Below the pieces are notes generated by a model that was not told the origin of the DNA, did no database searches, and saw only the letters and a program-made list of their open reading frames with translations. A DNA stretch of 64,000 nt from an uncultured Chloroflexia bacterium (GTDB lineage Bacteria; Chloroflexota; Anaerolineae; Anaerolineales; Anaerolineaceae): NCBI GenBank assembly GCA_963714465.1, contig CAVQOS010000022.1, forward strand, positions 25,433 to 89,432. The letters are read 5' to 3'. Below are positions 2,037 through 49,808 of this stretch, one piece after another. Position 1 is the stretch's first letter. The number at the start of each line of letters is the position of its first letter. Both the position numbers and the translations under genes were made by a program.

Positions 2037-3089
2037 TTATATTAATTTTTTCGTCATTTCCACAGGGTATAATTTGGATAAGTTCTGTCCAGTCGTTTTT
2101 GCAGTGAAGTCAGATATGTTTTCCTTTGATATTCTGTCGATAGCAACTCGGCAATATTCGTCGTCTAGATCGATACCCAAATAGTCTCTCCCAAGCCTTT
2201 TCGCAGCTACACAAGTGGTTCCAGAACCATTGAAAGGATCAAGAACCAACTCACCAGGTTTAGTGAAAAGCTTTATGAACCATTCAGGTAAAGCAACGGG
2301 AAATGCGGCACTATGACTTTGGTTATAGCACTCGGTAGGCATATGGAGAACATTGCTTGGGTAAACCATGTCCCTACCTACCCAATTTGAAATATTCTTG
2401 CCAAATCCAGAACCAACTTTCGAATTATCCCGCTTTTTATCTGTTTCAGATAAGTTTTTCAATCTACTCTTTGCCCAATCCCCTACAGGTACCATTACTT
2501 CGTCCTGATACATAGAAAATGTTCTCGATTTCGTGAAGTGAAGCAATCTTTCCCAATTATCTCGAAAACGGTTAGGCCATTTTCCTGGGTGGCTGTTTTT
2601 CTTGTGCCACATATATTCTTCTGTCCAAATCCATCCTCTTTTTCTCAATTCAAGTATCAATTCAAGGACATATGTGTGTCTTTCGCCATTGACGACGCGT
2701 TCCTTAATATTAAGAATAAATGAACCGGTCGGTTTTAAAACTCTATAAAATTGATCAGCTTTTGGAAGAAACCATGCAACGTAGTTGTCAGGTTTGATCC
2801 CGCCGTATGTTGATGCCCGTTGGTCGGCATAAGGGGGAGATGTAATGATTAAATCCACACAATTATCTGGCAACATTCTTAAAACTTCTATGCAATCTCC
2901 AGAGATGACTCTATTCTTACTTTCAATCGGGGCAAATAATGGCGAATGTACTTCATCAAAGTTTATGGGAAATTGAATGATTTCCGAGTAATAACTCTTT
3001 TGAGGTTCCTTAACCGAGTTATTTGCGGAGGCTTTGGAATTTTCAGAATAGACTATCATTTTATTTGACGTGGGTAGTGTAGGTTCCAT
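2037..3089 (-). CDS. site-specific DNA methyltransferase, beta class (N4-cytosine or N6-adenine)
   Basis: Motif IV (DLIITSPPY) comes before motif I (LVLDPFNGSGTT), which is the N6_N4_Mtase family order. The SPPY variant is more typical of m4C enzymes. The gene is visibly AT-rich compared with the rest of the window. Confidence 0.85.
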   Translation of the reverse strand: MEPTLPTSNKMIVYSENSKASANNSVKEPQKSYYSEIIQFPINFDEVHSPLFAPIESKNRVISGDCIEVLRMLPDNCVDLIITSPPYADQRASTYGGIKPDNYVAWFLPKADQFYRVLKPTGSFILNIKERVVNGERHTYVLELILELRKRGWIWTEEYMWHKKNSHPGKWPNRFRDNWERLLHFTKSRTFSMYQDEVMVPVGDWAKSRLKNLSETDKKRDNSKVGSGFGKNISNWVGRDMVYPSNVLHMPTECYNQSHSAAFPVALPEWFIKLFTKPGELVLDPFNGSGTTCVAAKRLGRDYLGIDLDDEYCRVAIDRISKENISDFTAKTTGQNLSKLYPVEMTKKLI

Positions 3090-4932: not shown

Positions 4933-5394
4933 CTAGAATTGGATCGCATCCAGCAGTTCATTGGTTTCCTGCAGCCAGGTCGTTGGGTTAGTGGAACGCT
5001 TGATGTATCGGATCACACCTTTTTGATCCAGAATGATGGAGGCGGTGCGTTGGATGCCGATAAAATTCTTTACCAGTTCAAAACTGTGATAGATATTACG
5101 CTCGGGATCTGAAAGGATTGGAAACGGCGATTTGAGTTGTTCTGCGTAACTTTGGGCTTTTTCAAGTGTGTCGCCAAGAATTACCAGAATCTGCGCCCCG
5201 GCTTTGACAAACTCATCGTTTTTGCGCCCCAACTGGGCGACATGCGCACGGCACTGCATTCAATTAAACTCCCGAACGAAAAACAAAACGACTTTAGTGC
5301 CAAGGTAATCATAAAGAGCAATTTCTCTCCCCATAGTTGAGGCGAGTTTGAAATCAGGCACCTGGGAACCAACTTGCAATTCATTATCCGACAT
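4933..5394 (-). CDS. AhpC/TSA-redoxin-like thiol-disulfide oxidoreductase, candidate selenoprotein (U45 encoded by TGA at 5262..5260)
   Basis: The ORF track gives only 4933-5259 (MQCRAH...). Reading on upstream in the same frame gives ATG at 5394, preceded by GGAGGA, then MSDNELQVGSQVPDFKLASTMGREIALYDYLGTKVVLFFVREFN-TGA-MQCRAHVAQLG. The TGA therefore sits at the first position of the CxxC-type redox motif. Confidence 0.65.
5225..5239 (-). promoter_or_regulatory. candidate bacterial SECIS hairpin
   Basis: On the minus strand, CGCCC-AGUUG-GGGCG starts 20 nt after the UGA. The G-containing apical loop is about 25 nt from the UGA, inside the range used for bacterial SECIS models. Confidence 0.4.
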
Positions 5395-5597
5395 GTAAAT
5401 TCCTCCTTACCCCTGGAAGTTTTGCCGTTCAACAACGGCATCGTCGTGTTGCACAGGAATGTTTGGAACGATTCCAAATCCCATCATCATAAATTATACA
5501 ATTGATAAACGATAAATGTAAGAATCGTTTTTAGTTGGATATCTTCTTTTCCAATTCGGGGATTGTTGATATCCTTTGACTTAACACGGAGAAAACT

Positions 5598-6575
5598 ATG
5601 GAAACCAACTTTTTTCCAAAACCCAAGGTATTTGTAACCCGAAGAATCCCTGATGTAGCCAGGGAAGAGCTTCAGAAACATGTCGATGCTGAGATATGGG
5701 ATTTTGAAACCCCGCCCCCTTATGAAGTATTGGTGGAGAAAGTTCGCGGCAAAGAAGGTTTGATGTGTTTGGTAACTGAAAAAATCGATGCAAAGTTAAT
5801 GGATGCCGGTAAGCAATTGAAAGTCATCTCGCAGATTGCAGTTGGTTTTGACAATATCGCGGTCGCAGAGGCAACTGCGCGTGGAATTCGCGTTGGGAAC
5901 ACGCCGGGCGTTCTTACCGAAACTACGGCCGATTTCGCATTTTCTTTGCTTCTGTCTGCAGCCAGGCGGATAGGCGAAGGGATTGATTATGTTCGCCAGG
6001 GAAAGTGGAAAACCTTTGGCTTATCTTTGTTATTGGGGCAGGATGTACACGGCAGGACCCTGGGAATCGTCGGCATGGGAAGAATCGGACAGGCAGTGGC
6101 GAAAAGAGCTAGAGGATTCGACATGCACGTGCTTTACACCGATCAAACCCGGATCAAACAAGCGGAAGAGGAATTAGGTGTCGAGTATTGCTCTCTCGAT
6201 AAATTGCTGCGCGAATCGGATTTTGTCAGTTTGCATGTGAACCTGAATGAACAAACGCGCGGCTTGATTGGAGAGCATGAGTTTGACATCATGCAGCCAA
6301 ATGCGATACTCATCAACACCGCCAGGGGTCCGATTGTGGACCAGGATGCGCTCTACACCGCCCTCAAGGACGGGAAAATTGCTTATGCAGCCCTGGATGT
6401 GACCGACCCCGAACCCATTGCAGCGGATGATAAATTATTGACGCTCCCCAATATTATCATCGTTCCTCATATCGCCAGTGCCACTGTGGCAACCCGCACC
6501 AAAATGTGCATGATGGCTGTGCAGAACCTGGTTGCAGGCGTAAAGAATGAGAAATTGCCTTTCCCGGTAAACTAA
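5598..6575 (+). CDS. D-2-hydroxyacid dehydrogenase (glyoxylate/hydroxypyruvate reductase-like)
   Basis: GIVGMGRIGQAVAKRA is an NAD-binding motif, and the C-terminal PHIASAT motif and overall layout fit the D-isomer specific 2-hydroxyacid dehydrogenase family. Confidence 0.85.
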   Translation: METNFFPKPKVFVTRRIPDVAREELQKHVDAEIWDFETPPPYEVLVEKVRGKEGLMCLVTEKIDAKLMDAGKQLKVISQIAVGFDNIAVAEATARGIRVGNTPGVLTETTADFAFSLLLSAARRIGEGIDYVRQGKWKTFGLSLLLGQDVHGRTLGIVGMGRIGQAVAKRARGFDMHVLYTDQTRIKQAEEELGVEYCSLDKLLRESDFVSLHVNLNEQTRGLIGEHEFDIMQPNAILINTARGPIVDQDALYTALKDGKIAYAALDVTDPEPIAADDKLLTLPNIIIVPHIASATVATRTKMCMMAVQNLVAGVKNEKLPFPVN

Positions 6576-6682
6576 GCGAAGGGAAAACCGCCGTAGGGTT
6601 GTTGGCGCGCTTTTTTAGAGATCAGATCAAAGACCATTCTGATCAGTTTGACAGGTTTTTCATCTTACTCTAAACTTATTTC

Positions 6683-8233
6683 ATGCTTTCCAGAGTCTAC
6701 TCTTGCGCTGTAGTCGGGATGGAGGGGGTCATCGTTGAGGTGGAAGTGGACACCAGCGATGGCTTGCCCAAGATGATCATTGTTGGATTGCCTGATGAAG
6801 CCGTGCAGGAATCCCGCGAACGAGTTCATTCAGCCATCAAGAACGCCGGCTTGTATTACCCCCGCAAGAAATTGACGGTAAATTTAGCCCCTGCAGTGGT
6901 GCATAAGGAAGGCGCCGGTTACGACCTACCAATTGCATTGGGAGTGCTGATCGCTTCTGCCCAATTGCCGCCGGATTGTGTGGATAACGCCCTGGTCATC
7001 GGTGAACTCTCACTGGACGGCAGCGTGCGTCATGTGCGGGGGGTTCTGCCTATTGCAGCCCTGGCACGGCAAAAAGGCTTTGTGCGGGTTTTTGCGCCCG
7101 TTGCAGATGCCGCGGAAGCGGCCCTCATTCCCGGGCTGGAAATCATCCCTGTCGGTTCGGTCGGTGACCTTTACCGCCATTTGATCCGGCAGAAAGTGAT
7201 CGCACCCCAGCCGCCGGTGCAGCCGGCAAACATTCCGGTGACCGTGCAGACAGACTTCAGTGAAATAAAAGGGCAGGAGCATGTCAAGCGCGCGCTCGAG
7301 GTTGCGGCAGCCGGGGGACACAATATCTTGATGACAGGCTCACCAGGCGCGGGAAAAACACTCCTTGCCAGGGCGCTGCCCGGGATTCTACCCCGGATGT
7401 CGCTTGATGAATCATTGGACGTAACCCGCGTTTACTCGGTGGCTGACCAGCTTCCAGCCGATACACCTTTGATTAACAACCGCCCCTTCCGCTCGCCGCA
7501 CCACACGGTCTCCTTTGCCGGTCTCGTCGGAGGCGGGAATATCCCGCGACCGGGAGAGATTTCACTGGCGCACCGGGGAGTGCTCTTCCTGGATGAGCTG
7601 CCAGAGTTCAACCCGCGGGTATTGGAAGTGCTGCGCCAACCGATGGAAGACAAGATCGTCACCATCAGCCGCGCGCATGGCACCATCACCTTTCCCGCCA
7701 GTTTTCAAATGGTGGGGGCGATGAATCCGTGCCCGTGCGGATATTACAACGATCCGGTAAAAGCCTGCACCTGTTCGGCAGGCGTCATCACCAAGTACCA
7801 GAAGCGCATCTCGGGTCCGCTGCTGGACCGGATCGATATTCACATAGAGGTCCCGCGGGTAGAGTATGAAAAGTTGAGCGACCGGCGCATGGCAGAAACC
7901 TCTGAAGTCATCCGCGCCAGGGTGGAAGCCGCCCGCCAGGTTCAAAGGCTGCGATTTACCTCTCCATCGGCAAGTGAAGAGGAGCAGGCATTCTTGCCCC
8001 TCTGTAATGCCGATATGCGTCCGGCGGAGATCCGCCAATATTGTGTGCTGGATACGACGGGTCAGGCGTTGATGAAAACCGCCATGAACCAGCTTCAACT
8101 CACGGCGCGGGCTTATCACCGCATCCTCAAGCTGGCTCGCACCATCGCCGACCTGGCAGGCGCAGTCGATATCTCACCGACGCACCTGGCTGAAGCGCTG
8201 CAGTACCGCCCGAGAACAAACACATCCTATTAA
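6683..8233 (+). CDS. YifB/ComM family Mg-chelatase-like AAA ATPase
   Basis: The N-terminal Lon-protease-like domain begins MLSRVYSCAVVGMEG. The Walker A motif is GSPGAGKT, and a C-terminal Mg-chelatase subunit ChlI-like region follows. Confidence 0.9.
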   Translation: MLSRVYSCAVVGMEGVIVEVEVDTSDGLPKMIIVGLPDEAVQESRERVHSAIKNAGLYYPRKKLTVNLAPAVVHKEGAGYDLPIALGVLIASAQLPPDCVDNALVIGELSLDGSVRHVRGVLPIAALARQKGFVRVFAPVADAAEAALIPGLEIIPVGSVGDLYRHLIRQKVIAPQPPVQPANIPVTVQTDFSEIKGQEHVKRALEVAAAGGHNILMTGSPGAGKTLLARALPGILPRMSLDESLDVTRVYSVADQLPADTPLINNRPFRSPHHTVSFAGLVGGGNIPRPGEISLAHRGVLFLDELPEFNPRVLEVLRQPMEDKIVTISRAHGTITFPASFQMVGAMNPCPCGYYNDPVKACTCSAGVITKYQKRISGPLLDRIDIHIEVPRVEYEKLSDRRMAETSEVIRARVEAARQVQRLRFTSPSASEEEQAFLPLCNADMRPAEIRQYCVLDTTGQALMKTAMNQLQLTARAYHRILKLARTIADLAGAVDISPTHLAEALQYRPRTNTSY

Positions 8234-8327
8234 TTTCTCCAGATCTATCACAATCCAGGATTGAAACCTGCGGTGACTTTTCACGTATGTTGTGTGTTCA
8301 TATATGTAATTGTGGAGCTTACACCGC

Positions 8328-9620
8328 ATGGAATCAACCCAAAACAAGCTGGATGAATTTGTGAAACACCAGATGGAAACGATGGCTCAAACCTGGCAGA
8401 ATGCCGGGACAGATTTTCCTATATTTACCCGTAGCTATTCTCTATCGGAAAAGAAACAAAACGAAGCACTTTTAAGCGAAGAACTCAACTGGTTGGTGAG
8501 CGAGCTTGAAAAGGTCGATCGGTCTGCACCCAGGCGGGATGAACTCACGGGTGAGGCTGGAAGACGCTTCAAGCAAGCCGGGAAAGCCATTTTTGAGCTT
8601 ACAGAGGACCAGGCGAATACACTGGAGAACGAGGGGATCCCTTCGATCAGTTCTCAGTTCTTTCAAACTGCCCGGGAATTTGATCCGGGCGTGACCACGG
8701 CCGATATCTTCCAGGCAAGCCGCAACGTCTGGACGATGAATTATTTGCAGGTGCTGCTCGATCTTCCCGTAAGACTGACCCCATCCATTTTTGCCTACAG
8801 CATGCTTTACCCGGTAACTGACAATTACCTGGATGACCCCAGGCGTTCTGCTGAAGAGAAACATAATTTCAACCAGCGGTTTTCTGAGTGGTTGTGCGGC
8901 GGGAACCTGCCGCCATCTTCTGAGCATGAACGCAAAGTGTTTCAACTCATAAAGTTGGTCGAATCAGAATTCACGCGAAGCGAACCACTGCAGGTATTTG
9001 ACAGCCTGCTGGCCATTCAATCGGCTCAACAGAAGAGTCTGACGCAGTGTTCAGACCGAAATGCATTCTCCCGACGGGATGGTTTGAAGATTTCCATTGA
9101 AAAGGGAGGAACATCGGTCCTGGCGGATGCGTTTCTGGTAGCGGGGTCTGTTCCCCAATGGCAGATGAAGCTCATCTTTAATTATGGTGTTTTTGCGCAG
9201 TTCATGGACGACCAGGAGGATGTAGCTGGTGATATCAAACAACATTCGGCTTCTGTTTTTACTGAGGCAGCTCGATCAGGCAGCCTGGATTTGACGATGA
9301 ACCGTTTGTTTTCCTTTGCACGCACCGTGCTCAAGGACCTGGATCGGTTTGATGCTCCGCGCTCCAGTCCGCTCAAAGAAATATCGATGAAGGGAATCGA
9401 CCTGCTGTTGATCGATGCCTGCGCCAGGACGTCGCGATTCTATTCCCCCGGGTACCTTTCCGACCTCGAACAGTATTACCCATTCCGGTTCAAATATCTT
9501 GCCGAAATCCGCAGGCAAACAGAAACCAAGCAGCCGATACTGAAACGGTTTATGGACGAGATTGCCAGATCTGAAAGTGCCAAACTCCCGGTTTGGGTTT
9601 TAGCGATGAAAACGGGATAA
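8328..9620 (+). CDS. hypothetical protein with class I isoprenoid-synthase-like Asp-rich motifs
   Basis: The ORF is long. The ATG at 8328 is preferred over the TTG at 8310. Motifs are DNYLDDPRR (8820-8837), KGGTSVL and FAQFMDDQEDVAGD (9207-9233), with about 130 aa between the Asp-rich blocks. Confidence 0.5.
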   Translation: MESTQNKLDEFVKHQMETMAQTWQNAGTDFPIFTRSYSLSEKKQNEALLSEELNWLVSELEKVDRSAPRRDELTGEAGRRFKQAGKAIFELTEDQANTLENEGIPSISSQFFQTAREFDPGVTTADIFQASRNVWTMNYLQVLLDLPVRLTPSIFAYSMLYPVTDNYLDDPRRSAEEKHNFNQRFSEWLCGGNLPPSSEHERKVFQLIKLVESEFTRSEPLQVFDSLLAIQSAQQKSLTQCSDRNAFSRRDGLKISIEKGGTSVLADAFLVAGSVPQWQMKLIFNYGVFAQFMDDQEDVAGDIKQHSASVFTEAARSGSLDLTMNRLFSFARTVLKDLDRFDAPRSSPLKEISMKGIDLLLIDACARTSRFYSPGYLSDLEQYYPFRFKYLAEIRRQTETKQPILKRFMDEIARSESAKLPVWVLAMKTG

Positions 9621-9630
9621 TTCTGGTAGG

Positions 9631-10587
9631 TTATCCTTTTGGACCTGATATTTGCAGGATTCGCTGCATGAGCGCAGGGTCGTCTTTAAACAATCCCACC
9701 TTGGGCAACCGCTGCAGGAGCAGCGCCCAGTTGGGATTGTATTCGAAAACTTTCTTAAAGATCGGCAACGCTTCATCCACTTTGCCCAAATCTGCCATGG
9801 TGGCTGCCTGCCAGAAGGGAAGTTCATCCATTTCGGGGGCAAGGATTGCGGCGTTATTATAAGCTTCGAAGGCTTCTTCGGTTTTACCGTCGCTGAGCAA
9901 AGCATCACCCTGGTTCATCATATCGTAGGCATGTTGAATTTTGATCAGGCGCTTCAATTCATTCAACGGTGAGGGATGATCCTCCACCCTCAGTTCGAGC
10001 GATTTTTGTTTCCAGGGCTGGTCGGTTTGCTCAGCGCTGACGATCACCATCGCCGCCGACTGCATCCCCCGAATATCGCCTTCTTCAGCCTGGGCAGCTT
10101 CCAAAGCCTTCATCATGCGGTCTGCCAGGCTACCAGTCGATTTCTCGTAGGCTTCAGACATGGCTGTCCAGACTGTGTTTCTGAGCATCATGTTTGCCTG
10201 TACCGAATATTGGTCTCCGGTAATATGTCCGGCTTCCGGGATGCAGCGTGAACCAGTATAAGCCGCGACGATACCTTTGGCGTTGATCATCGCCACCTGC
10301 CGTACTTGATGGTTCTCGTCCGCAGCCAAAAGGGTTTTCAAAGCACACTCCACGTCATCATTGCTCGCCATTGCGGAGAGCCCATTCGGGCCATAACTGA
10401 TATCCGCCATCGCCTGGGTCGCCACTACCCCAATTCCAGCTTCTGCCCAGGGAACCACTGATCCGACCGAAAACCAGTGGGATTGAACTGCAGCACCCAT
10501 ATCCCCTGTGATCGGATCGCGCGCGACGATGGAATAGGTGTGAGCCATCGGAAACCGATTCAGAATTTGTTCGGAATGTTGATTCAT
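9631..10587 (-). CDS. DUF1028 (Ntn-hydrolase-like) protein with a TPR-like C-terminus
   Basis: TYSIVARDPITGDMGAAVQSHWFSVGSVVPWAEAGIGVVATQA is a DUF1028 signature. The start was moved to the ATG at 10587, which has a GGAGAAAC RBS, so that it no longer overlaps the upstream gene. Confidence 0.8.
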   Translation of the reverse strand: MNQHSEQILNRFPMAHTYSIVARDPITGDMGAAVQSHWFSVGSVVPWAEAGIGVVATQAMADISYGPNGLSAMASNDDVECALKTLLAADENHQVRQVAMINAKGIVAAYTGSRCIPEAGHITGDQYSVQANMMLRNTVWTAMSEAYEKSTGSLADRMMKALEAAQAEEGDIRGMQSAAMVIVSAEQTDQPWKQKSLELRVEDHPSPLNELKRLIKIQHAYDMMNQGDALLSDGKTEEAFEAYNNAAILAPEMDELPFWQAATMADLGKVDEALPIFKKVFEYNPNWALLLQRLPKVGLFKDDPALMQRILQISGPKG

Positions 10588-28588: not shown

Positions 28589-28853
28589 TACAAAAGTGAT
28601 GATGGAAAAGAGTACACCATCCCACTGTTTTACAGGGAACCCGGACCAAGTGAGAACCGGGGAACAGACATGGTCGAAAATCATTCCGGAGCTGCGATCT
28701 GAACGTGGAAACACCAGTAAGTGAGCCGGACTCATCCTCCGTTACTGGGATGCAGATCTATCGAAAGATGTATCTGACAAGTGCTCCTCACAGAGAAGCA
28801 GGGTGGTACCGCGGGAAAATTCTCTCGTCCCTGACAGGACGAGTGTTTTATTT
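28589..28853 (+). promoter_or_regulatory. T-box riboswitch leader (Ile specifier AUC at 28680-28682)
   Basis: The conserved T-box sequence is agcagggtggtaccgcg (28796-28813). Stem I base GGAA/TTCC and ACCAT/ATGGT enclose a loop ...cgaaaAUCA. A GA-motif gtgatga lies at the 5' end. The terminator is ctcgtcc-ctgaca-ggacgag followed by tgttttattt (28824-28853). Confidence 0.85.
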
Positions 28854-28866
28854 AACAGGAGGATGA

Positions 28867-31800
28867 ATGTTCAAGCCAGTCTCACCGAAACTCAATGTGA
28901 TTCAAATGGAAGAAGGCATCTTAAGGTTTTGGAAGCGCCACGACGTTTTTCACCAAAGCCTGAAGACGCGCGTAGATGGCCCAGAGTACATCTTTTTTGA
29001 AGGTCCGCCCACTGCAAACGGTAAACCTGGGGTGCACCATGTACTGGCGCGCGCCTTCAAAGACATCTTCCCGCGGTATAAAACGATGAACGGTTTTCAT
29101 GTTAGCCGCCGCGGCGGCTGGGACACGCACGGACTTCCCGTTGAAATCGAAGTGGAAAAGAAACTCGGTTTCAACAACAAACGGCAGATCGAAGAATACG
29201 GCATCGCCAAGTTTAACGAATTGTGCCGTGAATCGGCGTTTACCTATATCCAGGAATGGGAGCATTTGACAGATCGCATCGCTTACTGGGTGGACCTGGA
29301 TGAAGCATACATTACGTACAAAAACTCCTATATCGAATCTGTCTGGAATATTCTGAAAAATTACTGGGATAAGGACCTGCTTTACCAGGGTTACAAAGTC
29401 GTTCCCTATTGCCCACGTTGTGGAACTCCCCTTTCTGACCATGAAGTCGCGCAGGGGTATCACGAAGTTGCAGACCCATCCGTGTTCATCCGCATGCCGT
29501 TAGTGGATGAGCCGGGCACTTCATTGCTGGTTTGGACGACAACCCCCTGGACGCTCCCTGGAAACGTTGCGGTTGCGGCTGGCGAGAATGTCGATTACGT
29601 CAAAGTGGAGCATGCTCTGCCGGAGGGCGGCAGTGAAAAACTGATTTTAGCCGAAGCGCTGCTCGAAAAAGTATTTGGTGCAGAGCCGGTGACGGTGCTG
29701 GACCGCTTCAAAGGCAAGCAGCTAAAAGGCAAACGTTATCACCCCTTGTACACCTTTGTGCCGCTGAGCAAGCCGGCTCATTATGTGGTTTTGGGCAATT
29801 TTGTCACAACCGAGGACGGCTCCGGACTGGTCCATATCGCCCCTGCATTTGGGCAGGACGATATGCAGGTAGCGTTTGATAATGACCTGCCCATCCTCAC
29901 CACGGTACAGCCTGACGGAACCTTTATTCCTGAAGTTCGACCCTGGGCAGGTTTATTCATCAAGAAAGCCGACCCGCTGATCATCGACAACCTGCAGGAA
30001 CGGGGGCTGCTCTTCAAAGTACAAACCTACACCCATAATTATCCATTCTGCTGGCGCTGCGGTACTCCGCTGATGTACTATGCCAGGCAAACCTGGTATA
30101 TCCGCACCAGCCAATTCAAAGACCGCATGGTTGAACTGAATGACCAGATCAACTGGTACCCGGGGTATATCAAAAATGGACGCTTCGGGAACTGGCTGTC
30201 AAACAACGTGGATTGGGCGCTCGGTCGCGAACGTTACTGGGGCACCCCGCTGCCGGTTTGGGAGTGCGAAAGCTGCCATACGCAAACATGTGTCGGCTCG
30301 GTCAAAGAGCTCTCTGAGAAAGCCGGGCGTGATCTGACCGAGTTGGACCTGCATCGACCTTACGTGGACGAGATCAAATTGCCGTGCCCTGATTGTGGTG
30401 GAAGCATGAATCGCGTCCCTGAATTGATCGATGTCTGGTTTGATTCAGGATCGATGCCGTATGCTCAATGGCATTATCCATTCGAAAACCAGGATGAATT
30501 CAAGGAACATTACCCTGCAGATTTTATTTGTGAAGCAGTAGATCAGACACGGGGCTGGTTTTATTCACTGCATGCTATCAGCACCCTGCTGAATGATTCG
30601 GTCGCCTTCAAGAATGTGATCTGCCTGGGTCTCATTTTGGACGCCAACGGGCAGAAGATGTCAAAATCCAAGGGGAATGTCGTTTCTCCATGGGAAGTTC
30701 TCGAAAAGAACGGCGCAGATGCGACGCGCTGGTATCTTTATACGGCAAGTCCTCCAGGGCAGGAACGACGCTTCTCGTCCGACCTGGTAGGCGAGGTGCT
30801 GCGCAACTTCACGTTGACCCTTTGGAATACCTATTCGTTCTTCGTCACCTATGCCAACCTGGATGGGTGGATGCCGGAAGCGGGAGCAGAAATTGCCTAT
30901 TCAGCGCTGGATAAGTGGCTGCGTTCTTCATTACATACCCTGGTCCGGGATGTAACCACAGCCCTCGAAAACTATGATGTGCTTGGCGCCACTCGACCAG
31001 TGGAACAGTTTGTGGATACGCTTTCAAACTGGTATCTACGCCGCTCACGCAGGCGCTTCTGGAAGAGCGAATCGGATGCGGATAAGAAAGCAGCTTACGC
31101 CACGTTATACGAAGCTTTGGTGACGGTCAGCAAACTGCTGGCGCCTACCATGCCGTTCATCGCAGACGAGATGTATCAAAACCTTGTGCGCTCAACGGAC
31201 AAAAACGCGGTTCTCTCGGTTCACCTTGCAGACTGGCCGAAATATGATGCTGCCCTGATCGATGAGAATCTGAATCGCGATATGGCGCTGGTTATGAAAT
31301 TGGTCTCATTGGGGCATGCGGCACGCAATAAAGCCAACCGCAAAGTTCGCCAGCCCCTGGCTGAAGTCGCCTTCGCGGTGGGGAACCGGGATGAAGGGGA
31401 GACAGTGCTGGCGCATGCTGACCTGTTGGAGGACGAGCTCAACGTGAAGAGCGTTCGCCTTTTGAACGCTGCCAGTGAAGCCGTCAGCTTCAGTTTGAAT
31501 CCGCTGCCGAAGCAATTGGGGCAAAAATACGGTAACAAGTTCCCGGAACTACGCAAAGCCGTATTGGCTTTGGATGCTGAACAAACCGCCACAAGCCTGC
31601 TTGCAGGCAACCCGGTGATGGTGACCCTCAATGGCGAGTCCTATTCGCTGCTACCCGAGGAGATCGAAGTCCGGGTCATAGCGAAAAGCGGCTATGCAGT
31701 CGCTGCCGAGGGAGCTTATCTTGCCGCCCTGGTCACGGATCTGACGCCAGAACTGATCCAGGAAGGGCTGGCAAGAGAATTTGTCCGGCGCGTGCAGGAT

Positions 31801-32016
31801 CTGCGGAAATCTGCCGAGCTTGAAATCGCCGACCGGATCAGGCTTTATGTCAGTGCCACCCCTGGGCTGACCGATGCGATCAAGGCGCAGCAGGAGTACA
31901 TCGTGGCAGAAACACTCACGCGCGAGTTGTTGTTCGAAACTCCACTTGAGGGGAGTCCCTCCGTGAGCGACGAATTTGACAACGAAAAAGTCAGCGTCGG
32001 GTTGGTCAAAATCTAA
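28867..32016 (+). CDS. ileS: isoleucine--tRNA ligase
   Basis: P.ANG.PG.HH (the HIGH region) and KMSKSKGN. The protein is 1049 aa and has the class Ia editing domain. Confidence 0.97.
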   Translation: MFKPVSPKLNVIQMEEGILRFWKRHDVFHQSLKTRVDGPEYIFFEGPPTANGKPGVHHVLARAFKDIFPRYKTMNGFHVSRRGGWDTHGLPVEIEVEKKLGFNNKRQIEEYGIAKFNELCRESAFTYIQEWEHLTDRIAYWVDLDEAYITYKNSYIESVWNILKNYWDKDLLYQGYKVVPYCPRCGTPLSDHEVAQGYHEVADPSVFIRMPLVDEPGTSLLVWTTTPWTLPGNVAVAAGENVDYVKVEHALPEGGSEKLILAEALLEKVFGAEPVTVLDRFKGKQLKGKRYHPLYTFVPLSKPAHYVVLGNFVTTEDGSGLVHIAPAFGQDDMQVAFDNDLPILTTVQPDGTFIPEVRPWAGLFIKKADPLIIDNLQERGLLFKVQTYTHNYPFCWRCGTPLMYYARQTWYIRTSQFKDRMVELNDQINWYPGYIKNGRFGNWLSNNVDWALGRERYWGTPLPVWECESCHTQTCVGSVKELSEKAGRDLTELDLHRPYVDEIKLPCPDCGGSMNRVPELIDVWFDSGSMPYAQWHYPFENQDEFKEHYPADFICEAVDQTRGWFYSLHAISTLLNDSVAFKNVICLGLILDANGQKMSKSKGNVVSPWEVLEKNGADATRWYLYTASPPGQERRFSSDLVGEVLRNFTLTLWNTYSFFVTYANLDGWMPEAGAEIAYSALDKWLRSSLHTLVRDVTTALENYDVLGATRPVEQFVDTLSNWYLRRSRRRFWKSESDADKKAAYATLYEALVTVSKLLAPTMPFIADEMYQNLVRSTDKNAVLSVHLADWPKYDAALIDENLNRDMALVMKLVSLGHAARNKANRKVRQPLAEVAFAVGNRDEGETVLAHADLLEDELNVKSVRLLNAASEAVSFSLNPLPKQLGQKYGNKFPELRKAVLALDAEQTATSLLAGNPVMVTLNGESYSLLPEEIEVRVIAKSGYAVAAEGAYLAALVTDLTPELIQEGLAREFVRRVQDLRKSAELEIADRIRLYVSATPGLTDAIKAQQEYIVAETLTRELLFETPLEGSPSVSDEFDNEKVSVGLVKI

Positions 32017-47183: not shown

Positions 47184-49808
47184 TCAATTTCCAAAGGGTG
47201 TTACAGAAGCCAGGAACATCTCTTCTCCGATGGCGCGGGTTTTTTCGGGTGTTCCATCCTCCAAAACCACGACCAGAGCCAAAGGTGTGGCTTTCCAAGC
47301 GGGCGTGGTTCCGGCGATGAACCAGACGATCGTCTGGTCATTGTTTTTTACCTTGGATAGGGTTTCCCAACCTGGAAAAGAAGTCATCGACAGGGCTGCT
47401 GAAGCAGCATCAGCTTCAACCGGGTTGACTGTTTTTACAGCCGATGGGACGGGTAATGCGATCCATTCATCCAGCGGATCTTTGTAAGCTGTGACCAGCA
47501 CTGGCGGCGTGACCACCCCGTGATCGGACAGGGCTGCGGCAGCGATGACCAATTGCAGCGGGCTGATGCGCCAAGTGCTGGTCGGGGATGTCAGTGTTTG
47601 GGTCGTGATGGGATAAGTGAGGGTTGTTGCACTGGCTGTTTCAACTGGCAAGCCGGGCTTGGCAAAGAATCCAAGTTGTGTCAAAAGATCCCACTGTACG
47701 GTGGGTTGGATGGATTTTGAAAGTATCTGGGTGGCGATCGGGCAACCAGAGGTGACCAGGTTGGGAAAGTCAGGCGCTGAACCTGGATCAACTGCGCAAT
47801 CTGCCAGGTCAGAGGCACTCAAGCTGGCTGGCACTGGGGGAAGTCCGCTTTTCAAAGCGCTGGCATACAGGAACGCCGATACTGCCGTGCCAAGAGGGTA
47901 TTGTCCCTGGGTGACCCGATTCAACAGCGGTGCGTTCTTGTCGGCCATCCAGGTACTCCAGTTTGTGCTCAACTCGTTTGCATTGAATGTGGGCGCTGTA
48001 GCCATGGCAAGAATCTCGCCTGACACAGCATTGATCAGGACAATGGCTCCTTTTTGATCTTTCAACAATGATTCCGCTTTATTTTGCAGCGAAGAATCCA
48101 GGCTCAGGCGGATATCCAACCCGGGAGGATATTGACCATAAAGCGACTGAGCCAGCCAGACGGCCGAAGTTGTATTTCCCTCGATCCCGCGCAGATACCC
48201 ATCCATGCTGTATTCGATCCCCGTTTGCCCGTAATCGGGGTTGCTGTAGCCAACGGTCGCACTTAACGATGGAAGATTTATCGTTCGCACGTAGTGTCCT
48301 ACGGCTCCGGTCGATTCGGCAAGGACGAGATTGTTACGATCCAGGATTTTCCCGCGTAGAACATACGAATCAGAAATCGCCCGGCGTGGATTATCGCTCC
48401 TGGAGAGAAGGTCAGATGCGCGTACCATTGACCACCAGCCGGTAAACAAACCGATGACGAAAAGCCCTGCCAGGAATATTGTTCCAATCAACGTATACGG
48501 CTTTAAGCGTTCGATGGTTGCCGGCTGGTCTTCTGCCTGGTTGCTGATGATCAACAATAATAAAAATGAAAAGAAGGATGTCACGAGCGAAGAGCCGCCG
48601 TACGAGACAAACGGCAGGGTTACCCCGGTCAGGGGGAAGAGGCGGATATTGCCCCCGATGATCAAGCCCGCCTGAACGATAAACGTACTCGATATCCCAA
48701 TCGCCAGGAACCTTTGGTATTGGTTGGGTGCATGCAGGGCAATTTCGATGCCCCGCACGGTGATGATCGCCAATACGATCGCCAATCCAACCGCACCGAT
48801 CAACCCGGCTTCTTCAGCAATCGCCGAAAAGATAAAGTCAGATTGGGCAACGGGCACCACCCCCGGGCTGCCAAGACCCAATCCGCGACCGAGGACACCG
48901 CCATTTCCAATGGCCATTAACGATTGAACGATCTGGTAGGAACGTCCAGAGGGATCCAACCAGGGATTGATCCAGGCTTCGATACGGAGGCGGATCACAT
49001 CGAAGATCAAATACCCTGAAACAAGCCCGATGATGATCACGAAGAAGCTGATCAACAACACCCTGCGTCTACCTGATGCAATATAAACGATCAAGGTGTA
49101 CAGAATAATGAAAATCGAGGCTGTCCCCAGATCTCGTTGAGCGATCAGGATGACGACGGCTGCGCCTGCGACTACCAGGGTGGGCGCCAGTAATTGGATG
49201 ATGCCAAAATGCGCCGGCAGGCTGTCTGCCAGGTATGCGGCGAGGTAGATGATCAACGCTAATTTGAGAAATTCTGAAGGCTGCAGGTAAATCCCGAACA
49301 TGTCCAACCACAGCCCTGGTCCTGTCCCCGATCCGCCGGGGTAAGTACCCAGGAAGAGGGTGAGGAGGGTGAGTGCCAGGATGCTGGTCAGCCAAACGTA
49401 TTTATACCGCCGTAAGACGGGCAGCAGTTTTTGAAAACGGACTCCGATCAAGAATCCAACAATACACACAACCAGCCAAATCATTTGGCGAAAACCGAGC
49501 GCAGGGTTCAAGCGGAAGATCGTGATCAATCCCCAACCTGAAAGCAATCCGACCATAGGCACCAGGTAAGGGTCACGATCCGGCAGGAACCGATTAACAC
49601 TGTGATACAGGACTGAAAAGCCAACCAGCCATACCCCCCATCCCACCCATTGTTCCCAGCGAACGGTCCCCGTCCATTGATGCAATCTTACCGCAGGGGC
49701 AAAGGTCAACACAATGCAGTTAAGAAATAGGAACAATGCCGCCAAAACCATCAAGCGGCTCTGGAGTTTATTGTGCGGTGCTTCAGTGGTTGGAAATAGA
49801 AAGTTCAC
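47184..49808 (-). CDS. SEDS (FtsW/RodA) glycosyltransferase fused to a class-B-PBP-like domain with degenerate active-site motifs
   Basis: The N-terminal half has SDFIFSAIAEEAGLIGA and LPFVSYGGSS. The C-terminal half has RGKILDRNNLVLA, GAIVLINAVSGEILAMATAPTFNAN and VWFIAGTTP...VVVLEDG. It reads YPLGTAVS where YPPGS.FK is expected. Confidence 0.85.
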   Translation of the reverse strand: MNFLFPTTEAPHNKLQSRLMVLAALFLFLNCIVLTFAPAVRLHQWTGTVRWEQWVGWGVWLVGFSVLYHSVNRFLPDRDPYLVPMVGLLSGWGLITIFRLNPALGFRQMIWLVVCIVGFLIGVRFQKLLPVLRRYKYVWLTSILALTLLTLFLGTYPGGSGTGPGLWLDMFGIYLQPSEFLKLALIIYLAAYLADSLPAHFGIIQLLAPTLVVAGAAVVILIAQRDLGTASIFIILYTLIVYIASGRRRVLLISFFVIIIGLVSGYLIFDVIRLRIEAWINPWLDPSGRSYQIVQSLMAIGNGGVLGRGLGLGSPGVVPVAQSDFIFSAIAEEAGLIGAVGLAIVLAIITVRGIEIALHAPNQYQRFLAIGISSTFIVQAGLIIGGNIRLFPLTGVTLPFVSYGGSSLVTSFFSFLLLLIISNQAEDQPATIERLKPYTLIGTIFLAGLFVIGLFTGWWSMVRASDLLSRSDNPRRAISDSYVLRGKILDRNNLVLAESTGAVGHYVRTINLPSLSATVGYSNPDYGQTGIEYSMDGYLRGIEGNTTSAVWLAQSLYGQYPPGLDIRLSLDSSLQNKAESLLKDQKGAIVLINAVSGEILAMATAPTFNANELSTNWSTWMADKNAPLLNRVTQGQYPLGTAVSAFLYASALKSGLPPVPASLSASDLADCAVDPGSAPDFPNLVTSGCPIATQILSKSIQPTVQWDLLTQLGFFAKPGLPVETASATTLTYPITTQTLTSPTSTWRISPLQLVIAAAALSDHGVVTPPVLVTAYKDPLDEWIALPVPSAVKTVNPVEADAASAALSMTSFPGWETLSKVKNNDQTIVWFIAGTTPAWKATPLALVVVLEDGTPEKTRAIGEEMFLASVTPFGN

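Follow-up and report, generated by a model that had tools for sequence, protein, structure and literature searches.

At positions 4933..5394 on the minus strand of the 64,000-nucleotide stretch of DNA analysed here (the window), one single gene appears to encode a 153-residue AhpC/TSA redoxin with a thioredoxin fold and the active site U45-M-Q-C48, in which an in-frame TGA is decoded as selenocysteine (Sec) by means of a hairpin in the mRNA. We assign a probability of roughly 0.88 to this interpretation. It is carried by a single translated frame through the TGA, the pairing of Sec with Cys among relatives, a conserved hairpin specific to the TGA forms, the fold together with the position of the motif in it, and the presence of Sec machinery in relatives, all of which are established by the analyses described below. 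The interpretation of the locus as a selenoprotein gene is supported.

Gene layout and genomic context

The minus-strand frame begins with an ATG, comprises 44 sense codons, a TGA and a further 108 sense codons, and ends with a TAG. The joined product reads ...VVLFFVREFN-U-MQC-RAHVAQLG... around the TGA. The original prediction had described a 108-aa open reading frame with a TGA directly upstream (5262..5260) and 44 codons leading back to an ATG at 5394, preceded by a purine-rich site at a distance of 6 nt. All of these elements are present, the purine-rich site being AAGGAGGA at 5408..5401. The features of the locus are as follows:

4933..5394, minus strand: predicted selenoprotein gene, complete, 153 codons plus stop (translation, Pfam AhpC-TSA, dN/dS)
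5392..5394, minus strand: start codon ATG (read from the sequence)
4933..4935, minus strand: stop codon TAG (read from the sequence)
5401..5408, minus strand: Shine-Dalgarno-like AAGGAGGA, 6-nt spacer to the ATG (read from the sequence)
5260..5262, minus strand: in-frame TGA, presumably read as Sec, residue 45, position 1 of UxxC (aligned codons in relatives)
5251..5253, minus strand: TGC for Cys48, second redox position of UxxC (invariant column; HMM alignments to 5enu and 2h1b)
5047..5049, minus strand: CGC for Arg116 in the IQRTAS motif (invariant or nearly so; aligns with the catalytic Arg of peroxiredoxins)
5223..5242, minus strand: candidate bacterial SECIS hairpin (comparative evidence: loop, stem, synonymous constraint in TGA forms)

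The list of open reading frames contains the 108-aa piece only (4933..5259), and in public annotations of identical DNA the gene is cut into products of 44 aa and 108 aa, as had been expected of gene callers faced with such a gene. The N-terminus of the joined protein, M-S/A-x-x-E-L, lines up with that of full-length relatives.

A promoter scan revealed a single promoter-like site (5522..5493), which is no more than expected by chance, and no terminator was found by a terminator scan at the locus. Furthermore, no conserved operon partner was detected. Since synteny is limited to the near-identical loci L001 and L002 and, in part, to L014, the neighbouring genes provide no clue to the function of the protein.

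A single translated frame through the TGA

Selection on the coding sequence was estimated for 14 species-level genomes carrying the TGA form, using the 40 codons before and the 104 codons after the TGA. The dN/dS ratio was 0.14 for the upstream and 0.13 for the downstream codons, which indicates that both halves are translated. The codons at positions -9 to -3 relative to the TGA encode the peptide VLFFVRE, which is 100% conserved at the protein level while each residue is encoded by two to six synonymous codons. Conservation on both flanks of an in-frame UGA that pairs with Cys in homologues, the general hallmark of a selenoprotein gene, is therefore seen at this locus.

The codon directly 3' of the TGA in the window is an ATG (5259), and translation might accordingly terminate at the TGA with the 108-residue frame starting at this ATG representing a functional protein of its own, possibly produced by termination-reinitiation. 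Such a product would be consistent with the direct abutment of the ATG and the TGA in the window, with the sequence GGGAG 9 nt upstream of ATG 5259 and with the models of the gene callers, which have exactly this extent. However, Met follows the TGA in only about half of the relatives, the others having Leu, Ile, Ala, Val or Pro encoded by CTG/TTG, ATC/ATT, GCA, GTN or CCG, so that the internal start is not conserved. The GGGAG consists of Arg-Glu codons that vary synonymously, and purifying selection acts on the 40 codons upstream of the TGA as strongly as on those downstream. Moreover, the fold is confidently modelled as one domain, of which the 108-residue piece would lack strands β1-β3 and the first redox residue. 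We consider a separate 108-residue product extremely improbable.

Selenocysteine and cysteine forms among relatives

A search of 5.8 billion proteins yielded 491 relatives, 120 of which were listed. Most of the listed relatives are truncations of 106-114 aa covering about 70% of the query, and those that were read start with MQC.... The clusters of truncated proteins carry either no name or the name "peroxiredoxin". Six relatives of 152-153 residues were read and have a "W" in the Sec column; for one of them (database protein P0001) the codon was checked in the DNA and is a TGA. More distant relatives, with 52-63% identity, have Cys in this column, which results in a CxxC motif.

When each GTDB species was represented by one genome, the gene was detected at 47 loci, all of which belong to metagenome-assembled genomes (MAGs) of Anaerolineae/Chloroflexota. 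The aligned codon is TGA at 26 and TGC or TGT at 21 of these 47 loci. Among the 80 best metagenome contigs the TGA was identified in 79, the remaining one being left unplaced by the motif search. The check proposed with the original prediction, namely whether homologues have Cys or TGA in the aligned column, thus returned these two states and no other residue. The clade was seen only in Anaerolineae MAGs and in metagenome contigs of unassigned organism. At one locus (L003) two TGA-containing paralogues are arranged in tandem.

A neighbour-joining tree shows the TGA forms as a paraphyletic group and the Cys forms as one large clade, which includes the three MAGs of Candidatus Villigracilis, plus a single sequence (L022) nested among the TGA forms. 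This topology suggests at least two switches between Sec and Cys in the history of the family.

A single base separates TGA from TGC or TGT, and the window codon could hence be a Cys codon turned into TGA, either in a dead gene or through a wrong base in the assembly. A few relatives do have the appearance of decayed genes (an extra in-frame stop in L009, a mere fragment in L049), and a TAG is located within the hairpin in the second copy at L119 and in L128. On the other hand, the same TGA is kept in more than 100 contigs that are independent of each other and originate from many samples and assemblers, with proteins of 57-100% identity, dN/dS is about 0.14 on either side of it, and the synonymous sites of the hairpin specific to the TGA forms are conserved, as described in the following section. 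Due to the conservation of the TGA and the purifying selection on both of its sides, a pseudogene or a sequencing error can be regarded as excluded for practical purposes.

A candidate SECIS element downstream of the TGA

The G+C-rich hairpin that had been predicted to start 20 nt after the UGA is present at plus-strand positions 5225-5239 (CGCCC-AGUUG-GGGCG). On the minus strand its core stem pairs 5239..5235 with 5229..5225 and encloses the apical loop AGUUG (5234..5230); two more lower pairs are formed around a bulged U at 5240. If the nucleotides are numbered from the U of the UGA, the stem occupies positions 24-28 and 34-38 and the loop positions 29-33. Underneath this core a U is bulged out at position 23 in most sequences, and as many as four additional pairs come after it; the others have a continuous stem with no bulge.

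The bacterial SECIS (bSECIS) consensus goes back to Zhang & Gladyshev 2005 and is summarised in PMC13188914. In this model the loop has 3-9 nt and a G in its first two positions, after which G or U is usual, the upper stem has 4 bp or more, the loop lies 16-37 nt from the UGA, and the minimum free energy (MFE) does not exceed -7.5 kcal/mol. The window element has a loop of 5 nt with G and then U at loop positions 2-3, a stem of 5 bp, a distance of 25 nt from UGA to loop and an MFE of -10.1 kcal/mol. The window hairpin thus agrees with all four of the published bacterial SECIS constraints. It resembles the bSECIS of the E. coli fdhF type in its location within the coding sequence just downstream of the UGA, its small apical loop with G-U, its spacing within 16-37 nt and, in most members, the bulged U below the upper stem. 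It differs in its unrelated sequence and in its shorter stem with a core of 5 bp. Furthermore, no match to the SECIS families of Rfam was found, and a permissive search of 5150-5300 returned DicF only, as a chance hit.

The hairpin is highly conserved among 79 distinct TGA-form sequences. The loop reads AGUUG in 71 and AGUUA in eight of them, and the pairs 27-35 and 28-34 are C-G throughout (79/79). Compensatory changes were observed at pair 26-36, which is C-G in 72 sequences, G-U in three and G-C in two, and at pair 25-37, with one change from G-C to U-A. The formal covariation is modest (two pairs and three cells in the set of 26 sequences), and in this set a register slid by +2 reaches an equally high covariation score.

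The codons +7 to +12 after the TGA (V-A-Q-L-G-R), which coincide with the hairpin, have a normalised synonymous-codon entropy of 0.23 in the TGA forms compared with 0.75±0.19 in the rest of the gene. They represent the lowest six-codon window of the gene, and they do so in the Sec forms only. In the Cys forms the entropy of the same codons is 0.83 compared with 0.71 in the rest of the gene, and the codons at the hairpin vary, for example between CAA and CAG, between CUC, CUG, CUU and UUG, and between GGG, GGC and GGA. In addition, the MFE of the hairpin region is -11.4±1.8 kcal/mol in the Sec forms (n=26) and -5.4±2.6 kcal/mol in the Cys forms (n=21; Mann-Whitney p = 3e-8). The Sec and Cys forms fall largely into separate clades and contrasts between them are not phylogenetically independent; the contrast within the gene among the Sec forms is unaffected by this separation. 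The constraint at synonymous sites, which is confined to the TGA forms, provides the strongest evidence for the putative SECIS element.

Folded on its own, the 68-nt stretch does not exceed shuffled sequences in stability (z = +0.69), and the support for the hairpin is hence comparative rather than thermodynamic. Within all loci searched, the hairpin behind a TGA was detected in this gene family only and in no other genes.

Selenocysteine machinery and genetic code

The original prediction had proposed a search for the genes of Sec biosynthesis and insertion. Such genes are linked to TGA-form genes in relatives, and none was found in the window. In the 64-kb window ARAGORN detected no tRNA genes, Rfam at the gathering score returned a T-box only, and the scans of 26 window ORFs with NCBIfam and Pfam models revealed no selenium-related gene. 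When the E. coli proteins SelA, SelB and SelD served as queries, neither the window nor the first 49 loci gave a tblastn match to selA, selB or selD. A second gene with an in-frame TGA was also not detected in the window, where the candidates were out-of-frame or overlapping artefacts.

A gene for tRNA-Sec with the anticodon TCA is located 1.6 kb downstream of the TGA-form gene on a MAG contig (L004) whose protein is 72% identical to that of the window (Rfam RF01852, 72.1 bits compared with a gathering score of 47). A copy of this tRNA-Sec with 98% identity occurs at the same position beside the TGA-form gene of L065. Extending the tblastn search to all 131 loci revealed a selD fragment 3.2 kb from the gene in L052 (74% identical; TIGR00476, 266 bits compared with a cut-off of 125); selA and selB were seen neither in the window nor in the loci of relatives. 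The Sec trait has been documented for Chloroflexi/Chloroflexota (PMC1794560, PMC13326102).

These results also bear on the possibility that the UGA is decoded as Trp, Cys or Gly, by a reassigned code or near-cognate suppression, with the hairpin merely stimulating read-through. Some annotation pipelines indeed used a code with TGA for Trp, which accounts for the "W" written in homologues, and the lack of Sec machinery within the 64-kb window would be in line with such a decoding. However, the stop codons of 49 long ORFs in the window are TAA (29), TGA (11) and TAG (9), and since TGA serves as an ordinary stop there, the code is not reassigned. Homologues that lack the TGA carry Cys and never Trp or Gly, and the column corresponds to the nucleophile of a CxxC redox motif, which is a classic site for Sec. 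Taking furthermore into account that the hairpin agrees with the model of a SelB-type bSECIS and that tRNA-Sec and selD are located beside TGA-form genes in relatives, a decoding other than Sec seems quite improbable.

Protein family, fold and active site

For profile searches the joined 153-residue sequence was used with U written as C. As proposed originally, the protein is AhpC/TSA-redoxin-like: Pfam AhpC-TSA (PF00578) matches in one alignment that runs over the TGA (residues 8-131, model positions 1-124 of 124, E 2.4e-27, 95.8 bits compared with a gathering threshold of 26). The joined protein also matches Pfam Redoxin and, marginally, AhpC-TSA_2 (29.3 bits, cut-off 27). The top NCBIfam model is the SelL-related redox protein NF040769 (E 5.4e-21), with a partial alignment of residues 11-109 to model positions 2-102 of 173, yet the score of 75 bits lies below the curated cut-off of 120, and the protein is thus not a member by NCBI's criterion. 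The scores for PrxU (NF040737, 38 bits, cut-off 270), BCP (NF006960, 49 bits, cut-off 140) and ResA (NF002854, 38 bits, cut-off 170) are also below the cut-offs. Its profile matches thus place the predicted protein in the AhpC/TSA superfamily and, as its NCBIfam scores fall short of the cut-offs for SelL-related, PrxU, BCP and ResA proteins, in no curated equivalog family.

When the profile is aligned to solved structures, U45 is placed opposite the first Cys of the CEPC motif of ResA, in agreement with the suggested location of the TGA at the first redox position, and with the Thr of the peroxiredoxin motif T-P-G-C. C48 aligns with the second Cys of ResA and with the peroxidatic Cys of BCP/PrxQ. 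Of the peroxiredoxin motif PxxxTxxC the Pro is replaced by Val and the Thr by Sec, and the peroxiredoxin Arg is kept as R116, whose counterpart in 5enu is the Arg of "GIERS-TFLID". Among the relatives the C48 column is invariant and R116 is invariant or nearly so. Judged from these alignments, the protein is not a canonical peroxiredoxin as it lacks the Pro and the Thr of PxxxTxxC.

An AF2 model of the Cys homologue P0020 (pLDDT 89.5) places the Cys that is aligned with Sec directly before helix 46-57. A Foldseek search with this model identified BCP/PrxQ (TM about 0.8) and ResA as the top solved folds. The N-terminus MSDNELQVGSQVPDF contains no hydrophobic segment, and no signal peptide or membrane anchor was recognised in it; consequently, the protein is probably located in the cytoplasm.

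Relation to known selenoproteins and redoxins

That UxxC Prx-like proteins are a known class of selenoproteins, as stated in the original prediction, is confirmed by the literature. The Prx-like thiol:disulfide oxidoreductases (PF00578, UxxC/UxxU) are a selenoprotein family "predicted with high confidence", for which Kryukov & Gladyshev 2004 is the listed source (PMC13188914), and "Prx-like 1, pfam00578, UxxC" is among the abundant selenoprotein families of the GOS survey (PMC2398784). The window protein shares with these selenoproteins the PF00578 domain, the Sec as first residue of a UxxC motif following a β-strand, the existence of Cys homologues, the predicted function and the routine mis-annotation. 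Its PF00578 domain and the Sec at the first UxxC position are the features that define the class. Two GOS reads of Prx-like 1 show no more than marginal similarity to it (E 0.008 and 0.3 at 19% identity), and its motif, FFVRE-x-x-U-M/L-Q-C-R, differs from R-x-x-W-U-P-x-C in three GOS sequences. Signature peptides of the Anaerolineae clade were absent from the GOS datasets searched. On the basis of these comparisons the window protein is best described as an Anaerolineae-centred member, or subfamily, of the Prx-like UxxC class.

The protein has the same fold as PrxU and BCP/PrxQ (Foldseek TM about 0.8 to 3drn and 5enu), keeps the peroxiredoxin Arg and has Cys48 at the position of the peroxidatic Cys. 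It differs in that the Sec of PrxU is itself peroxidatic (TxxU), whereas the Sec of the window protein is located three residues earlier, in the place of the Thr, and in that Val replaces the Pro of the PxxxTxxC motif of BCP/PrxQ. From B. subtilis ResA it is distinguished by the retained peroxiredoxin-type Arg and by the absence of an N-terminal anchor or signal, and it resembles ResA in its matching fold and in the correspondence of U45 and C48 to Cys74 and Cys77 of the CEPC motif. Of the characteristics of the ResA/TlpA group, the window protein has the thioredoxin fold with a CxxC-type motif that caps the N-terminal end of helix 1 (alignment and AF2 model of P0020); the extracytoplasmic location and a family score above the cut-off were not found. 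Like the window protein, proteins of the type cd02970 (PRX_like2) have a CxxC-type redox motif whose second Cys corresponds to the peroxidatic Cys of peroxiredoxins and lack the peroxiredoxin Pro and Thr. SelL of fish has a UxxU motif, whereas the Anaerolineae family has UxxC.

It is tempting to regard the Anaerolineae clade as a distinct, as yet undescribed selenoprotein subfamily that is not orthologous to the Prx-like proteins of Geobacter and the GOS survey or to SelL, but we consider this rather doubtful. Such a subfamily would have a hybrid active site with Sec in place of the Thr of TxxC, the peroxidatic Cys and the Arg kept and the Pro lost, which might reduce peroxides or disulfides via a U45-C48 selenenylsulfide. 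It would also have its own nearly invariant SECIS element with the loop AGUUG, and Sec would be ancestral in it and have been replaced by Cys two times or more (in the large Cys clade with Candidatus Villigracilis and in L022).

Proposed mechanism

Sec insertion in the source organism, the binding of SelB, the substrate and the reductant are inferred. During translation the UGA would be followed by the G+C-rich mRNA hairpin, whose AGUUG loop, with G-U at loop positions 2-3, starts 25 nt past the UGA. When the ribosome arrives at the UGA, the SelB·GTP·Sec-tRNA(Sec) complex would bind to this hairpin and Sec would be inserted in place of termination. In the folded protein Sec45 would cap the N-terminal end of the first helix, where the nucleophile of a CxxC motif is found, and its selenolate may attack a substrate in its oxidised state, which would be a disulfide or perhaps a hydroperoxide. 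Cys48 would then resolve the intermediate to yield an intramolecular selenenylsulfide between U45 and C48, which may be re-reduced by a thioredoxin-type reductant. The protein would thus presumably function as a cytoplasmic selenol/thiol oxidoreductase with a disulfide or a peroxide as substrate.

Implications

More than 100 public protein clusters appear to be 106-114-residue fragments, splits into 44 and 108 residues or "Trp" translations of one and the same selenoprotein, and functional or structural inferences drawn from such fragment or "Trp" clusters would be wrong. The finding changes no concept, since both the UxxC Prx-like class of selenoproteins and the way its genes are mis-annotated are well known. 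A literature search found no paper discussing the use of selenium in Anaerolineae. In the literature covered, "selenoprotein" occurs together with Anaerolineae in seven papers, only in passing (one to three times each), and judged by title or abstract none of the six listed has selenoproteins as its subject. The close TGA and Cys forms represent a natural experiment in which the constraint on the RNA comes and goes with the UGA, and the set of TGA and Cys forms may be used for training or benchmarking predictors of bacterial SECIS elements. For the Anaerolineae, the gene described here would add a selenoprotein to their repertoire.

Surroundings of the redoxin gene and other features of the window

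The features considered in the window, with strand, are:

276-2009 and 2037-3089, both minus: IS1182-family transposase ORF (assignment scoring under the curated cut-off) and adjoining adenine-specific DNA methyltransferase-like ORF
5493-5522, minus: sigma-70-like site CTTACA-18-TATAAT, 10/12 matches
8310-9620, plus: 436-aa ORF without family assignment
28590-28835, plus: T-box leader (Rfam RF00230, 98.8 bits)
28867-32016, plus: ileS, isoleucine-tRNA ligase (TIGR00392, 978 bits)
47184-49808, minus: 874-aa ORF, N-terminal half matching FtsW/RodA (SEDS), C-terminal half matching a PBP2-type transpeptidase

The transposase/methyltransferase-like pair, which may represent a mobile or restriction-modification remnant, is separated from the selenoprotein gene by about 2 kb. 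The sigma-70-like site is located approximately 100 nt 5' of the redoxin ATG, in a divergent intergenic region common to the redoxin gene and a glyoxylate/hydroxyacid reductase gene (5598-6575), and such sites were no more numerous than chance would give.

Neither Pfam nor NCBIfam gave a match for the 436-aa ORF; its counterpart in the Anaerolineaceae MAG contig L014 (64% identity) adjoins yifB. Based on its two halves the 874-aa ORF appears to encode a SEDS-bPBP fusion protein. The ileS gene is immediately preceded by the T-box leader, which is a tRNA-sensing riboswitch arrangement of the ordinary kind.

The redoxin gene and its neighbours in relatives

The following features were detected on contigs of relatives carrying the redoxin gene (own coordinates):

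L004, 12022-12117, same strand as the redoxin gene: tRNA-Sec gene
L065, 12155-12250, same strand as the redoxin gene: tRNA-Sec gene
L052, within 6427-10218: tandem pair of genes for GltD/YgfK-like NAD(P)H iron-sulfur flavoproteins
L003, 9270-10460: two tandem redoxin-gene paralogues, TGA at 9402 and 10133
L022, 10124-10190: weaker hairpin at the SECIS position of a Cys-form gene, -9.6 kcal/mol
L024, 10118-10184: weaker hairpin at the SECIS position of a Cys-form gene, -8.5 kcal/mol

The two tRNA-Sec genes, which are 98% identical, are each located about 1.6 kb 3' of a TGA-form redoxin gene, from which they are separated by ORFs without any family match. On L052 the two GltD/YgfK-like genes are flanked by the TGA-form gene on one side and, at the contig end, by a selD fragment on the other. 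The flavoprotein genes gave partial matches to two models, one named "putative selenate reductase subunit YgfK" and the other "dicluster-binding protein near Sec", in each case under the cut-off of the model.

Both L003 paralogues carry the TGA and the same hairpin; a tRNA-Ser(cga) called by ARAGORN on the opposite strand within the first copy (9543-9621) is probably a false positive. Other copies are apparently decayed and could be pseudogenes or assembly errors: the L009 gene (10001-10459) contains an additional in-frame stop (FIGI*RTAS), the hairpin-loop CAG is changed to TAG in the second L119 copy (near 6102) and in the L128 copy (near 219), and the L049 copy (near 1102) is a fragment with a broken frame.

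Compared with the Cys-form mean hairpin energy of -5.4 kcal/mol, the L022 and L024 hairpins are more stable, and in the neighbour-joining tree the Cys-form gene of L022 is nested among the TGA forms. The two hairpins may be "fossil" SECIS elements remaining after replacement of Sec by Cys.
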